Origin: a virus
Taxonomy: Duplodnaviria > Heunggongvirae > Uroviricota > Caudoviricetes
Strand: one strand, 5' to 3'
Length of the DNA stretch: 33,086 nt
Virus record (IMG/VR): IMGVR_UViG_2541047931_000005
Location: 1 to 33,086 of that record
Shown here: in pieces, positions 274-33,086 of the stretch
Layout of the letters: each line of letters opens with the position of its first letter
Numbering within the stretch: position 1 is the first letter of the stretch
Notes under the pieces: model-generated
The model's input: the letters and a program-made list of their open reading frames with translations, nothing else
What the model was told of the DNA's origin: nothing
Databases searched by the model: none
Program-made: the position numbers and the translations under genes

Positions 274-331
274 ATCTCACCTCAAATAAGTGGTTTGCTG
301 CCTAATTTCATTTTCTGGCGACCAACACAAG

Positions 332-715
332 TCACCTCGCCGTCAGTTGTTTTGATTTCCGGTAGCCTGCCGCGTAAATGGCTACGTTTGGAAGACATAC
401 ACCAGTTTCTGGTTGCTTATGTCCAAACTCATTCGCGTACACAATGGCCGCTCGCTCCAGATTGCGTCTGTATTCTTTCTGTTGCCAGATCACGTCCTGT
501 GCCATGAACTTAATTGGCTTAGCGTCTTCTATGCGCTCAGGCGTTTCGTGAGTACCTTTAGCCTGAATCTGTGCCCGACTGAGGGTAGGGCGATGAAGTT
601 TCTCTGAACTGATAACCTCTTCACGAGCTTCAACACCCTGTGCAATGGCTTGCGCCTTTAAACGTTCACGGCGACGAGCTGCTGATGAACCTTTGAAAGC
701 TGTTCTGCGTGTCAT
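332..715 (-). CDS. N: N-like transcription antiterminator (P22 gene 24 type)
   Basis: Arginine-rich motif SAARRRERLKAQ near the N-terminus and a C-terminus (YAAGYRKSKQLTAR) resembling P22 gp24; GGAGG RBS before ATG at 715; sits just downstream of pL/nutL. Confidence 0.75.
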   Translation of the reverse strand: MTRRTAFKGSSAARRRERLKAQAIAQGVEAREEVISSEKLHRPTLSRAQIQAKGTHETPERIEDAKPIKFMAQDVIWQQKEYRRNLERAAIVYANEFGHKQPETGVCLPNVAIYAAGYRKSKQLTAR

Positions 716-830
716 GGTGACCTCCTGATGAACTTTGGTGATGTGGGCGGTAACCAGCCGCACAAGTCAGGGCCATCTTCACGTTTTACCCTTTCTCGCT
801 TGCCACATCCCAAAGTTCACTTTGGTTATC

Positions 831-1126: not shown

Positions 1127-1153
1127 AAAACCCGGCGCTGAGGCCGGGTTCTT
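1127..1153 (-). terminator. Hairpin terminator downstream of the ParA-like gene
   Basis: CCCGGC-GCTGAG-GCCGGG stem-loop followed by a U-rich stretch on the minus strand, immediately after the stop at 1156. Confidence 0.55.
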
Positions 1154-1155
1154 GC

Positions 1156-2199
1156 TTAAAGAATACTTGCCAGATACTTAAGTTGTCTTTGATATCGAGT
1201 AACCGACTGGTTAACTTGTAACCTTTTCCCTTCACTTACTGTATGGAAGCGACCAACTTTTAGCTGTGATATTGGTATGCTTTCAGCCCCACTAATTTGC
1301 CCGCTTGATACAAAATCATCTGTAACCACAATTGCTTTGCTAACATCTTCATCGGCAAAGAGATGACTGTATTTTTCAGCGATTTTTACAGCTCTCTCTA
1401 TGTACATTTGAGATGCGCGACCTGGTGTTGATGATTTACGGCTTTTTGAACCAGCCATTGTCATTACGATCGCTGCTACTTTTGGAGCCCCAAGCCCACC
1501 CGCACGCTCATTCCATAATACAAAATCTTTTGATTTATTTGCCAGCATTTCCATTGTGAGATGAAGTGACTCAATTGAGTGTTCATCTACGCGTACAGGG
1601 ATAATCAATGCCTCAGACGCGCACCATGCTAGGTGTGTTCCTCCAGCATAGAAAGGGCTTGTATCCATCAATAAAATTTCGCATTTTTTGTCTTTCGCTT
1701 CATCGTTCATTATTGCGCGAAGAGAATTTAATAGTGTTGATACTGCTTTTGGTTCTCCGCGAGATAGCGCTACTTGTAGTTGTTGATACATGCTTGATGG
1801 GAAAGCGAATAGCTCAGGATCACCTGGAATCGCATAACATGCCTTACCACCTTTAAAATCTGGGCAGAAATTACTTACTCGATATGAAATATCTTCTGGC
1901 TGCTCACCAAAAGCTGGACCCAGCATTTTTGGTGTCAGTGCATTAGCTATTGTTACAACCGGTTTTTCACCACGCAATAGTGTCTCCGTTAAATTACATT
2001 GCGGGCATAAGTCAGCCACTAATACGGAGTTACGTCGTGACAGCTCATAGGCGAGGTTGAATGTCATCGTGGACTTACCAACACCACCGCGCAGATTGGA
2101 AACTGCATAACTTTTGAATTTTGGCCCGCCATCTACGACGTAACCTTCCTCAACAACTTGTGCATAGCGTGCCATTACTGACTCAACTACAGTGCTCAT
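1156..2199 (-). CDS. ParA/MinD/Soj-like P-loop ATPase with a C-terminal extension, function unknown (candidate accessory or exclusion gene)
   Basis: 347-aa ORF with deviant Walker A (LRGGVGKST), A'-like (VLVADLCPQCNLT) and Walker B-like (ILLMDTSP) motifs; AGGAGG RBS 7 nt before the ATG; AT-rich compared with its flanks. Confidence 0.85.
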   Translation of the reverse strand: MSTVVESVMARYAQVVEEGYVVDGGPKFKSYAVSNLRGGVGKSTMTFNLAYELSRRNSVLVADLCPQCNLTETLLRGEKPVVTIANALTPKMLGPAFGEQPEDISYRVSNFCPDFKGGKACYAIPGDPELFAFPSSMYQQLQVALSRGEPKAVSTLLNSLRAIMNDEAKDKKCEILLMDTSPFYAGGTHLAWCASEALIIPVRVDEHSIESLHLTMEMLANKSKDFVLWNERAGGLGAPKVAAIVMTMAGSKSRKSSTPGRASQMYIERAVKIAEKYSHLFADEDVSKAIVVTDDFVSSGQISGAESIPISQLKVGRFHTVSEGKRLQVNQSVTRYQRQLKYLASIL

Positions 2200-2225
2200 A
2201 TGAATTCCTCCTTTAAATTTTGAAT

Positions 2226-2254
2226 ATTAAAGCACCACAATGATGCAGGAGCAA
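2226..2254 (-). promoter_or_regulatory. Candidate sigma70 promoter for the ParA-like gene
   Basis: Minus strand: -35 TTGCTC, 17-bp spacer, TGn-extended -10 TTTAAT, about 25 nt upstream of the ATG at 2199. Sequence only. Confidence 0.35.
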
Positions 2255-2330
2255 TAAAAAAGCGCAGGAGAATGTAAAATTAGCAGGTGAATTAAAAATG
2301 CGCAGGAGATGTGATGTTTTGCAGGTTGAC
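2242..2330. repeat. Five phased direct repeats (core GCAGGAG/GCAGGTG/GCAGGTT, 18-20 bp period) each followed by an A/T tract
   Basis: GCAGG cores start at 2245, 2265, 2283, 2302 and 2321 on the plus strand, upstream of and overlapping the candidate promoter of the ParA-like gene. Confidence 0.6.
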
Positions 2331-2422
2331 TGAACAAATGCTGATGTATACCTCGTTTGTAGATAGGTATGTTAATTGCTATATAACATGCTTATGTTAT
2401 TGATATTTATATATATTAATCA

Positions 2423-2452
2423 TAAAAAAAGGCCGCACTTCTGTGCGACCTT
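2423..2452 (-). terminator. Intrinsic terminator immediately downstream of cI
   Basis: Minus strand GGUCGCAC-AGAA-GUGCGGCC hairpin followed by U7, beginning 5 nt after the cI stop codon. Confidence 0.65.
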
Positions 2453-2455
2453 TCA

Positions 2456-3172
<717 letters not shown>

Positions 3173-30140: not shown

Positions 30141-33086
30141 ATGAGAGACATTACAGCCAATGTGATCGTATCGATGCCTTCGCAACTCTTCACTATGGCG
30201 CGTTCTTTTAAAGCCGTAGCCAATGGCAAAATTTATATCGGTAAAATTGACACTGACCCTGTAAATCCTGAAAACCAGATTCAGGTTTATGTGGAAAACG
30301 AAGACGGCTCTCACGTTCCTGTTTCGCAACCAATCATCATTAACGCTGCTGGATATCCTGTATATAACGGACAGATTGCCAAATTCGTAACTGTGCAAGG
30401 CCATTCTATGGCTGTTTATGATGCGTATGGTGCGCAGCAGTTCTATTTTCCGAATGTGCTGAAGTATGATCCTGATCAGTTACGGCGGCAATTAGAAGAC
30501 CCAGATGGAGCGAATAAATACCCAAAACTTCAGATAGCAAGATGGAGAGACAGTTATGATGTAAGAGGTTGGGGGGCTATTGGTGATGGTGTTCATGATG
30601 ATACATCAGCTCTATCAGAATTACTTTCTGTTGCAACAGGTGGTGAAAAGATAGATGGGCGAGGGCTTACTTTTAAAGTATCAAATCTTCCGGATGTCAG
30701 TCGATTTAAAAATGCTCGTTTTTTATTTGAGAGAATACCGGGTCAGCCTCTTTTTTATGCTTCTGAAGATTTTATCCAGGGAGAGTTATTTAAAATTACA
30801 GATACACCGTGGTACAACGCCTGGACGCAGGATAAAACGTTTGTATATGACAATGTCATCTATGCGCCTTTTATGGCTGGAGACCGCCATGGTGTAAATA
30901 ACCTCCATGTTGCATGGGTTCGCTCAGGAGATGACGGGAAGACCTGGACAACGCCGGAATGGCTTACAGATTTACATGAAAACTATCCCACAGTTAACTA
31001 TCACTGCATGAGTATGGGGGTTGTCAGAAATCGCCTTTTTGCTGTAATTGAGACGCGGACCGTGAGAGGAAATAAACTGCAGGTTGCAGAGTTGTGGGAT
31101 CGCCCAATGAGTCGCAGCCTTCGCGTTTATGGTGGTATAACGAAAGCAGCAAATCAGCAAGTCGCTTATATTCGCATTACTGATCACGGATTATTTGCTG
31201 GTGATTTTGTCAACTTCTCAAACTCTGGTGTTACAGGTGTTACCGGGAATATGACGGTGACTACTGTTATTGATAAAAATACTTTTACAGTTACGACGCA
31301 AAATACCCAGGATGTGGATCAGAATAACGAGGGTAGATACTGGAGTTTTGGTACATCATTTCACTCGTCACCATGGAGAAAAACCAGTCTTGGAACTATT
31401 CCTTCTTTTGTTGACGGAAGCACTCCTGTTACTGAGATTCACAGTTTTGCGACGATTAGCGATAACAGTTTTGCTGTTGGCTACCATAATGGTGATATTG
31501 GTCCACGCGAGCTTGGGATACTCTATTTCTCTGATGCTTTCGGTTCTCCTGGTAGCTTTGTTCGCAGACGCATACCTGCAGAATATGAGGCGAATGCATC
31601 TGAGCCATGTGTAAAATATTATGATGGCATTCTGTATCTGACGACCAGGGGGACATTAAGTACTCAACCCGGTAGTTCATTGCACAGAAGCTCTGATTTA
31701 GGTACATCATGGAATTCTCTTCGCTTCCCAAATAATGTTCATCACTCAAACCTTCCTTTTGCCAAAGTTGGCGATGAGCTGATTATTTTTGGCAGTGAGC
31801 GCGCATTTGGTGAGTGGGAAGGAGGAGAACCTGATAACCGTTATGCAGGAAATTATCCAAGAACATTTATGACCAGAGTTAACGTCAATGAGTGGAGTCT
31901 GGATAATGTAGAGTGGGTTAATGTTACTGATCAGATTTATCAGGGCGGAATAGTTAACTCTGCGGTTGGTGTTGGTTCAGTTTGTATCAAAGACAACTGG
32001 CTGTACTACATTTTCGGTGGGGAAGACTTTCTAAACCCATGGAGCATAGGGGATAACAACAGAAAATATCCTTATGTTCACGATGGTCACCCGGCTGATT
32101 TATATTGTTTCAGGGTGAAAATCAAACAGGAAGAATTTGTTTCAAGGGATTTTGTCTACGGAGCCACTCCTAACAGAACGCTTCCTACTTTGATGTCGAC
32201 GTCAGGCGTGAGGACGGTTCCTGTACCCGTTGATTTCACAGATGATGTTGCCGTCCAGTCACTGACTGTCCATGCAGGTACATCAGGACAAGTTCGCGCG
32301 GAAGTCAAACTTGAGGGTAATTACGCCATTATTGCGAAGAAAGTACCGTCTGATGATGTTACCGCTCAGAGATTAATCGTTAGCGGCGGTGAAACAACGT
32401 CTTCAGCAGATGGTGCAATGATAACGTTGCATGGTTCCAGAAGCAGTACTCCACGTCGCGCGGTATATAACGCACTCGAACATCTTTTTGAGAACGGAGA
32501 TGTTAAACCTTATCTTGATAATGTAAATGCTCTTGGTGGTCCGGGAAACAGGTTCTCGATAGTTTATCTTGGCTCCAATCCTGTGGTTACCAGTGACGGA
32601 ACATTAAAGACAGAGCCGGTCTCTCCTGACGAAGCATTGCTGGATGCCTGGGGTGACGTCAGGTATATCGCTTATAAATGGCTGAACGCTGTCGCTATAA
32701 AGGGGGAAGAAGGGGCGAGGATACATCATGGTGTAATCGCGCAGCAACTTCGTGATGTTCTTATTTCTCACGGACTCATGGAAGAAGAAAGCACAACATG
32801 CCGCTATGCCTTTCTTTGCTATGACGATTATCCCGCAGTATATGATGACGTCATTACTGGCCAAAGGGAAATGCCGCTGACTGATAATGACGGGAGCATC
32901 ATTGTTGATGAGGATGATAATCCAGTGATGGTAATGGAAGACATCATTGAGCGCGTTGAAATAACGCCAGCAGGATCTAGATGGGGGGTCAGACCTGATC
33001 TCTTATTCTATATCGAGGCGGCATGGCAGCGCAGAGAAATGGATAAGATAAAAGCTAGGTTAGACTTAATAGAAGGGAAGCACTAA
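30141..33086 (+). CDS. Tailspike: P22-type head-binding N-terminal domain fused to a sialidase-like (endosialidase-type) body and C-terminal chaperone-like domain
   Basis: N-terminal about 120 aa resemble P22 gp9 ([13 protein letters not shown]...[38 protein letters not shown]...[14 protein letters not shown]...VLKYDPDQ); two Asp-boxes SGDDGKTW (30924-30947) and SSDLGTSW (31689-31712). Confidence 0.85.

Follow-up and report, generated by a model that had tools for sequence, protein, structure and literature searches.

In the current view, ATPases of the ParA/MinD family are positioning motors and act together with partner proteins. In the type Ib par loci (pTAR parA, TP228 ParF-ParG/parH, pB171 ParA-ParB/parC, and pSM19035 delta-omega), an upstream array of short direct repeats overlaps the operon's promoter and is both operator and centromere. 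The type Ia ParAs (P1, and SopA of F) autorepress their own promoters. Here we describe a gene for a ParA-like protein of 347 amino acids, at 1156..2199 on the minus strand of IMG/VR virus record IMGVR_UViG_2541047931_000005. We analysed positions 1 to 33,086 of this record, which we call the window. The gene lies between an N-type antiterminator gene and a lambda-type cI, in the immunity region of an otherwise P22-like prophage. We propose that it belongs to a self-contained, horizontally mobile “moron” cassette whose product would repress its own promoter as an ATP-bound dimer and whose output would be directed against mobile DNA. Taken as a whole, we give this account about an even chance of being right.

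The locus resembles the type Ib loci in two ways: the protein is a small Walker-type ParA without an N-terminal helix-turn-helix (HTH), and the cassette has an upstream array of short repeats that overlaps its promoter. On the other hand, type Ib loci are plasmid-borne and need a second, centromere-binding adaptor, whereas in the present family no locus has a second gene, plasmids carry no copies, the protein is longer by about 100 residues, and the catalytic aspartate is replaced. So of the features of a type I ParABS system, there is no ParB or adaptor in the operon, no residence on a low-copy replicon, and no Switch I aspartate. A repeat array that might be a centromere is present. Soj/ParA and the type Ia ParAs share with our protein the core fold and the logic of the ATP-sandwich dimer, and Soj is its best structural match, but the type Ia proteins have an N-terminal HTH that is absent from the window protein, and Soj binds DNA non-specifically and requires Spo0J. 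Where type Ia proteins have an added DNA-binding domain, the present family has clade-specific residues, at about 91-110 and 236-270.

Three other systems are worth comparing. BcsQ has an arginine at the trans-acting lysine of Walker A and a cysteine (in some, a serine) at the water-activating aspartate, and as BcsRQ it purifies in the form of a sandwich dimer, loaded with ATP, whose ATPase activity is weak (PMC7840130). The window protein has the same pair of Arg and Cys in its nucleotide pocket, but BcsQ is without the cis lysine, while our protein keeps it (GKS/T), and BcsQ has no role with DNA. BstA is a solo prophage defence gene that commonly lies after the repressor and has a cognate DNA element with direct repeats, aba, at its own 5' end (Owen et al., PMC8585504). 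BstA and aba form matched pairs that differ between variants, aba is 63 bp long with two terminal repeats, and the defence is proven (PMC8585504). Our cassette, too, has a single prophage gene and, at the 5' end of this gene, a DNA element that is probably cognate. However, the proteins are unrelated (there is no match to BstA in PADLOC), and the two terminal repeats of aba are unlike a phased array of 5-12 sites. Finally, RexA-RexB of lambda is lysogen-expressed cargo in the same slot, between cI and tIMM/OL, but there the two genes are co-transcribed with cI from pRM, whereas here there is one gene with its own predicted promoter and an insulating terminator.

The evidence for self-regulation comes from comparing homologues. 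Arrays of CCTGC motifs lie upstream of 51 of 51 close homologues (at least 57% identity; several phyla, with Enterobacterales, Pseudomonas, Burkholderiales, and Myxococcota among the sources), with 3-12 motifs each, all on the same strand, and there are almost no motifs on the opposite strand or within the gene at these loci. The spacings between motifs are quantised (19 bp in 174 cases and 9 bp in 61), which implies a lattice of about 9.5 bp. Apart from being rich in T, the spacers are unrelated between loci. At 25 of 35 main-clade loci, we found a promoter-like match (TTGnnn-N16-18, of the type TTGnnn-N17-TAnnnT) whose -35 or spacer overlaps a CCTGC, and the gap is N17 in 23 of these 25.

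More divergent relatives, which are 30-56% identical to the window protein, have other motifs. In an alphaproteobacterial subclade, all five loci have CGACA/TGTCG half-sites, and in four of the five these form three palindromic or nearly palindromic operators (CGACA-N3-5-TGTCG) over the promoter, with 28-bp spacings in two. In a third clade (Firmicutes, Desulfovibrionaceae, Planctomycetes, and others), TTAGTT...AACTAA inverted repeats surround a TTGACA/TATAAT promoter, and 43 of 59 loci have at least one TTAGTT/AACTAA half-site within 130 bp of the start. Among the loci compared, CCTGC arrays are absent from both divergent clades, and the motifs of those clades never occur in the main clade. 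As a separate observation, a 43% identical Firmicute homologue from Aneurinibacillus terranovensis (L068, upstream of 5001) has 19-bp-spaced CCTGC motifs before a TATAAT box, so recognition of CCTGC would reach past the clade with at least 57% identity.

The type of motif tracks the clade, the gene is the sole coding sequence of the cassette, and none of its neighbours is conserved. The most economical interpretation is that every protein of the family recognises the promoter of its own gene. Given this co-variation, we think it likely that the protein binds there. Putative operators that lie over a gene's own promoter and co-vary with its product are what one would look for in an autoregulated DNA-binding repressor, and this family appears to have them. 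The residues that are kept within clades but differ between them cluster in the two segments mentioned above; by offset from Soj, these are about where ParA proteins would contact DNA. A C-terminal signature (DDFxSxGRIS...VN.S) is common to all clades. Since these clades have different operators, the C-terminal tail is unlikely to set DNA specificity, and it probably serves a shared function.

The window's own array fits this pattern. An earlier sequence-only reading of the window, made by a model, had pointed to phased repeats, and these hold up: five motifs (CCTGC followed by A, G, or T) lie on the gene's strand exactly 19 bp apart, at -126, -107, -88, -69, and -50 in gene orientation. In 2,000 Markov-simulated windows, the longest chain of motifs was 2, so the array is not random. 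(An automated repeat search of the upstream region missed it, as each 19-bp unit has no more than 5-6 conserved bp.) At the predicted promoter, the -35 hexamer and the spacer share bases with the last motif. The terminator that was proposed to lie right after cI is also there, as a 12-pair stem with a T-run. Cassette copies L011, L015, L016, L017, L025, L026, and L053 also have a hairpin of this kind (ggtcgcaNagaTgcggccttttt) before the array, and because it recurs in these seven copies from other contexts, the upstream terminator appears to travel with the cassette. A second hairpin does follow the gene, as had been claimed, and it starts 3 nt past the stop codon, but it is lambda's own tIMM and not part of the insert. 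The order of the unit is terminator, array and promoter, gene, terminator. The claim that the gene is AT-rich is right as to direction, as the coding sequence has 42.7% GC, which is below cI (45.8%), N (50.9%), and the window (47.6%). But the difference is modest, and only the upstream spacer is markedly AT-rich (33% GC across the interval 2200-2455).

The hairpins after homologues in Pseudomonas and Franconibacter (CCCGGCC...GCCGGG-T) resemble the one at 1127-1153 of the window. From their sequences, such common terminators may be recombination joints for swapping the cassette into immunity regions. We also note that the post-cassette terminators of the Franconibacter and Pseudomonas loci (L006 and L003; AACCCGGCC-N-GCCGGGTTTTT) closely resemble lambda tIMM itself.

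That a ParA/MinD-like gene occupies the rexA-rexB slot was borne out by Pfam, by phrog_164, by Foldseek, and by where the homology to lambda breaks (1157/2455). According to blastn, the window matches lambda at 91.6% across 875-1157, which includes the OL operators and tIMM, and again from 2455, in the stop codon of cI, while 1158-2454 has no DNA homology to lambda. Because the homology breaks off at 1157 and restarts at 2455, the insert (1158-2454) replaces rexB-rexA to the base. HK97, mEp234, and HK106, which share the cI/cro immunity region of the window, carry different cargo in the rex slot. The insert is present in only 5 of 5,426 complete E. coli genomes, and it adjoins cI in each.

Profile and structure searches of the full protein returned generic ParA and P-loop profiles and a Soj-type fold. 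Pfam matches to AAA_31 (2.8e-13) and CbiA were both above the gathering cut-offs, and a PHROGs profile search matched phrog_164 (E 1.8e-42). No curated NCBIfam model came near its cut-off, and the matches from sequence searches of the PDB, with either the single protein or a profile, were confined to the N-terminal P-loop region. We built an AlphaFold2 model from 21 homologues (predicted local distance difference test, pLDDT, 84.7; predicted template modelling score, pTM, 0.88). Its best match in Foldseek is Thermus Soj (E 7e-12; template modelling score 0.76, normalised to Soj). Other matches are McdA, Helicobacter pylori Soj (HpSoj), DIP2308, pSM19035 delta (2oze), and pNOB8 ParA, all at 15-20% identity; the E values for Soj, McdA, HpSoj, delta, and pNOB8 ParA range from 1e-9 to 7e-12. 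The core fold, the Walker B aspartate, and the Switch regions are those of the ParA/MinD (SIMIBI) superfamily. The sequence-only reading overstated what is unusual at the C terminus, where it saw an unrecognised extension of about 90 amino acids. The Pfam models end near residue 250, but the ParA fold continues past this point, and the alignment to Soj spans about 320 columns, or almost the whole query. The real addition is about 30-40 amino acids, which the model folds as a beta-hairpin (318-328) and a helix (332-346). We considered an internal start at M265, which would give a C-terminal protein of the size of ParG, and rejected it: this methionine is invariant in its own clade but varies in others. 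We set aside a hydrophobic-moment test, meant to detect a membrane-targeting helix like that of MinD at the C terminus, when the MinD controls failed to score.

The unusual active site that had been described is as described. The open reading frame (ORF) contains NLRGGVGKST and DLCPQCN, and R37, C65, and D179 are invariant in the family. The Walker A motif has the form LRGGVGKS/T, so the cis lysine is retained and the signature (trans-acting) lysine is an invariant arginine, and the catalytic aspartate of Switch I is an invariant cysteine. The change at the signature lysine is also on record for BcsQ, which is accepted as a family member. C65 occupies the position of the aspartate that was mutated as a hydrolysis trap in 2bek (Soj D44A), 6nop (McdA D38A), and 8jml (HpSoj D41A). 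Because BcsQ has the same Arg/Cys pocket, we infer long-lived ATP dimers rather than a fast-cycling partition motor, and slow hydrolysis of ATP seems reasonably probable by this analogy. The protein is not itself a BcsQ. The similarity is limited to residues about 31-70 (26.7 bits to TIGR03371, over residues 32-70 only, as compared with a cut-off of 157.85, and E 0.11 to BcsQ in the PDB), Pfam's CBP_BcsQ scores 18.5 against a cut-off of 21.3, and there are no bcs genes (bcsR or bcsA) nearby. This precedent in BcsQ, and the conservation of the array and its co-variation with the protein, go beyond the sequence-only reading.

We found at least 997 homologues. The best 120 are nearly all full length (about 345-347 amino acids) and 61-100% identical, and they come from Enterobacterales, Pseudomonas, Burkholderiales, Myxococcota, Verrucomicrobia, and Acidobacteria. 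In an exhaustive search of 50%-identity representatives, only 35 clusters scored below E 1e-30, followed by generic ParA scores, so the family is a tight and distinct clade. The public names are all generic: “ParA family protein”, “chromosome partitioning protein”, or “BcsQ”. No ParB-like partner had been seen in the window, and we agree. The neighbours are N and cI, and no ParB-like family is among the best 25 of the 36 Pfam families that were reported for the 30 other ORFs of the window. Nor is there a conserved partner gene in about 100 homologue loci (from the flanking ORFs of viral loci and a batch scan of 49 divergent genome loci): 145 neighbouring genes contain 163 Pfam families, and none was seen more than 3 times.

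What recurs is the kind of slot. In viral contigs, the cassette lies directly after HTH/S24 CI-type repressors of differing lineages in at least 11 of 31 non-redundant loci (7 of these placements are confirmed by Pfam), and in several of these an N-type gene comes next, as in the window. It lies downstream of Q antiterminators in 4 loci (2 confirmed by Pfam). In the P2-like Ralstonia phage RsoM1USA it is beside the phage attachment site (attP) and adjoins a DUF3800 gene, and in Franconibacter it is between integrase and tail fibre genes. The carriers of close homologues are integrated prophages with integrases, and chromosomes. Also, Pseudomonas phage phi297 encodes a distant full-length relative (27% identity; NC_016762.1 15492-16544, or L259:3468-4520). 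It has the common C-terminal tail (...QVN...RYQR...) and the cysteine (in DMCPQ), but it keeps the signature lysine. Its gene lies immediately after a CI-like repressor, and the next gene is DUF1654, which the P. chlororaphis prophage has there too. Because phi297 is a cultured temperate phage, it is a handy experimental model.

The statement that no described system matches also stands, given PADLOC, NCBIfam, and the literature that we searched. In full-text literature on solo ParA-like prophage genes, defence, and immunity-region cargo, we found mentions at the level of annotation and no functional study. The authors of the RsoM1USA genome listed a “ParA family protein” for which other Ralstonia phages had no homologue, and Rousset et al. 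set the partition-like (ParA-like) genes of P2 hotspots aside as being for plasmid maintenance.

Arrays also occur without the gene. Scanning IMG/VR for four motifs on the 19-bp lattice gave at least 119 stretches, and of 80 loci that we read, the gene follows the array in only 10. About 15 of the scan's matches are perfect 19-bp tandem repeats that happen to contain CCTGC, and we set these aside as unrelated minisatellites, as the whole unit is conserved. (Long perfect tandem repeats with a 19-bp unit are found in many viral contigs, often at the ends, and are unrelated to the ParA arrays.) At L198:1897-1958, five CCTGC motifs lie between two terminators with no gene, and the downstream terminator has a core (cccgccactgagcgggctttttt) that matches the second of the hairpins behind the ParA-like gene of P. 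chlororaphis (L003). Given this shared core, L198 is a cassette whose gene appears to have been cleanly deleted. Temperate phages of Klebsiella have gene-less arrays of four CCTGCA motifs on the 19-bp lattice with T-rich spacers, antisense within mosaic EaA/Eaa ORFs, where they encode a linker such as ...AAMLQELKKSAGTEAICRSDENVQVL... Seven sequence variants of this group have drifted in their spacers but are unchanged in all four motifs, and the motifs occupy each of the three codon phases, which implies selection on the DNA. In Pseudomonas-type prophage contigs (60-66% GC), an array of 5-6 CCTGC motifs on a 9+19 lattice is antisense over the 5' end of a gene for a lipobox protein (MKLQAWRKTAGAAIFGRCSRKAQVVQVLGLVFALAGC...), which from its sequence is probably a spanin. 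There is no ParA-like gene within the stretches of these Pseudomonas loci that we examined. Gene-less arrays could be targets in trans, decoys like aba, centromere-only free-riders, or sites for another factor.

The mechanism that we propose is as follows. The upstream terminator would block read-through from cI and pRM. The protein would form long-lived ATP-sandwich dimers, and these would bind the array cooperatively and occlude the -35 and the spacer. The result would be tight autorepression, with a set level of the protein in lysogens that is independent of cI. Output would depend on the C-terminal element that all clades have kept, on non-specific binding to DNA, or both, and would most likely be aimed at other mobile DNA, as phage exclusion or defence. 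The array might double as a site of titration or self-immunity, as aba does for BstA. Exclusion or defence is our leading guess for the output, but a tentative one that we would not bet on. The grounds for it are analogy and position: the rex slot, the sites after Q, and the sites beside att are the classic places for lysogen-expressed accessory genes such as rexAB and BstA (PMC8585504).

Several results weigh against this account. The protein has no recognisable sequence-specific DNA-binding domain. The promoter of its own that the gene had been thought to have can be read at 2226-2254 (TTGCTC-N17-TTTAAT), but its predicted -10 is weak, and a generic promoter scan did not report the site. The arrays of the main clade, with 5-12 sites, are far larger than autoregulation requires. 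Scanning PADLOC-DB 2.0 gave only PDC-M28B (E 0.0011, over 36 residues of the P-loop) and no match to a defence model beyond the P-loop, and defence genes are merely sporadic near divergent homologues. Finally, gene-less arrays on the same lattice, such as those within the Klebsiella EaA ORFs and over the starts of the Pseudomonas lipoprotein genes, allow for another binder or another role.

A bolder form of our account would be that these are undescribed single-gene prophage systems for conflict between mobile elements, in which an ATP-locked ParA-fold protein sits on a phased array that serves as operator and as a self-immunity or titration site, and in which gene-less arrays are counter-defence decoys or hijacked sites. 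An arms race between protein and DNA would explain why the operator motifs differ between clades. Still, we consider this form unlikely.

The gene-less arrays invite another explanation, which is that the protein is a trans-acting regulator. It would be an ATP-dependent repressor or roadblock whose true targets are CCTGCA arrays in the host or in other phages, whether co-resident or incoming, and the array at its own promoter would be just the autoregulatory one of this set. This would account for why gene-less arrays keep their motifs and lattice while the spacers drift, in all three codon phases, as expected from selection at the level of DNA, and why the sites of orphan arrays are transcribed regions, early (EaA) or lysis, of temperate phages whose genera have the gene too. 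However, there is no second array in the 33-kb window or in the gene-carrying loci, the orphan array of class X has no match in complete E. coli genomes, and some orphan arrays (L198) are plainly the remnants of cassettes that lost the gene. So we find a regulator of this kind improbable.

Alternatively, the array might be a centromere. In a single-protein system for partition or tethering, the protein would bind both the array and the nucleoid and would carry excised, pseudolysogenic, or not-yet-integrated phage genomes along with the chromosome. The layout does recall type Ib par loci, the arrays exceed what an operator needs, the gene-less arrays of other phages could be centromere-only free-riders, and Rousset et al. 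did take the ParA-like genes of P2 hotspots for plasmid maintenance. Nevertheless, we are quite skeptical. As the sequence-only reading supposed, this is not a canonical partition ParA: no locus that we examined has an adaptor or ParB, there is no close homologue among 72,556 plasmids, the hosts of the gene are integrated prophages with integrases, and the loss of the catalytic aspartate argues against a gradient motor driven by hydrolysis. Some Aeromonas plasmids do carry relatives, also solo, at 30-32% identity, but at least one of these plasmids encodes its own ParA-ParG pair. (On Aeromonas caviae pKAM345_3, L059:3515-3600, we noticed GG(T/G)ACA(G/A)AA-type repeats with a period of about 11 bp, roughly 340-420 bp upstream of the distant solo gene; these might be that clade's operator or a set of plasmid iterons.)

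A third idea is that the protein modulates the physiology of the host, like MipZ or MinD in cell division or like Soj in the control of DnaA, and alters the growth or division of lysogens. The ParA/MinD fold is suggestive, the conservation of the C-terminal element across phyla suggests a universal target, and tight autoregulation would suit a protein that is dose-sensitive or toxic. But beyond the core fold there is no similarity to MipZ, to MinD, or to their partner-binding surfaces, and no division or replication genes are linked by genomic context, and we regard this idea as very doubtful. Finally, the array might not be bound by the ParA-like protein at all and might be an independent mobile promoter, a recombination joint, or another factor's site that drives the gene by chance, as the many gene-less arrays at mosaic junctions and the likeness of the cassette-flanking terminators to lambda tIMM (which could act as recombination joints) might suggest, but this is the hardest to believe, as the type of motif strictly follows the protein's clade, a common host factor is implausible for an association of 51 of 51 across phyla, and the register of array and promoter is fixed.

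If we are right about self-regulation, then the ParA fold has apparently been reused as a solo, sequence-specific, self-regulating switch that binds DNA. To judge from its sequence, the cassette is something new within the ParA/MinD family: it is solo, insulated, and apparently self-regulated, and it combines a phased array of putative operators with a nucleotide pocket like that of BcsQ. It seems to be a plug-in unit that passes from phage to phage across bacterial phyla and has repeatedly ended up in the slots for weapons that lysogens express. If its output is defence or exclusion, it would be a new class of protein for prophage immunity, and its logic of protein plus DNA element would have BstA-aba as its one precedent so far. 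With its strict 9/19-bp lattice, it is also well suited to the study of ParA dimer assembly on specific DNA. And should the output prove ordinary, it is still true that hundreds of entries in databases that are named “chromosome partitioning protein” or “BcsQ” are misleading.

Table 1. Features of the cassette and its neighbours in the window, and arrays or repeats at other loci. Positions are in the window unless a locus is named.
Feature	Position	Strand	Details
N-type antiterminator gene	332..763		Pfam N_peptide
Terminator hairpin serving the gene	1127..1153	-	In lambda-homologous DNA; lambda tIMM
Gene for ParA/Soj-fold ATPase, 347 aa	1156..2199	-	R37 at signature-lysine position, K42 in P-loop, C65 at catalytic-Asp position, D179 in Walker B
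Conserved C-terminal hairpin and helix	Residues about 294-347		Hairpin 318-328, helix 332-346
Ribosome-binding site GGAGG	2207..2211	-	7 nt before ATG; read from sequence
Predicted sigma-70 promoter	2226..2254	-	TTGCTC-N17-(TG-n)TTTAAT; read from sequence
CCTGC(A/G/T) direct-motif array	2244..2325	-	n = 5, exact 19-bp spacing; proposed operator array
Array motifs (+ strand coordinates)	2320-2325, 2301-2306, 2282-2287, 2263-2268, 2244-2249		
AT-rich spacer, terminator to array	2326..2416	-	No gene-strand ORF of at least 40 aa
Insulating terminator after cI stop	2417..2454	-	12-pair stem 2454-2427, 6 GC, T-run
cI gene, lambda-type	2456..3169		HTH_3 and Peptidase_S24
Klebsiella EaA arrays	L164:6809-6870; also L168, L172, L195, L209, L210, L213, L163, L152, L192, L206, L146, L175		
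Pseudomonas lipobox arrays	L165:10726-10787; also L145, L167, L178, L184, L189, L191, L201, L212, others		
Perfect 19-bp tandem repeats	L173:338-647, L203, L204, L211, L159:5350-5601, L188:782-862		

We also made two observations about the rest of the window. First, the N ORF at 332-763, as listed mechanically, has a GTG start and 143 amino acids, while the conserved N sequence starts at an internal ATG (MTRRTAFKGSS...); the true N gene probably begins there and encodes about 127 amino acids. Second, the P22-like part of the window encodes P22 portal, coat, scaffold, and ejection proteins and an endosialidase tailspike. The tailspike ORF (30141-33086, cut by the end of the window) contains the endosialidase domains End_N_terminal, End_beta_propel, and End_tail_spike, so this P22-like phage with lambda immunity is probably specific for the K1 polysialic-acid capsule.

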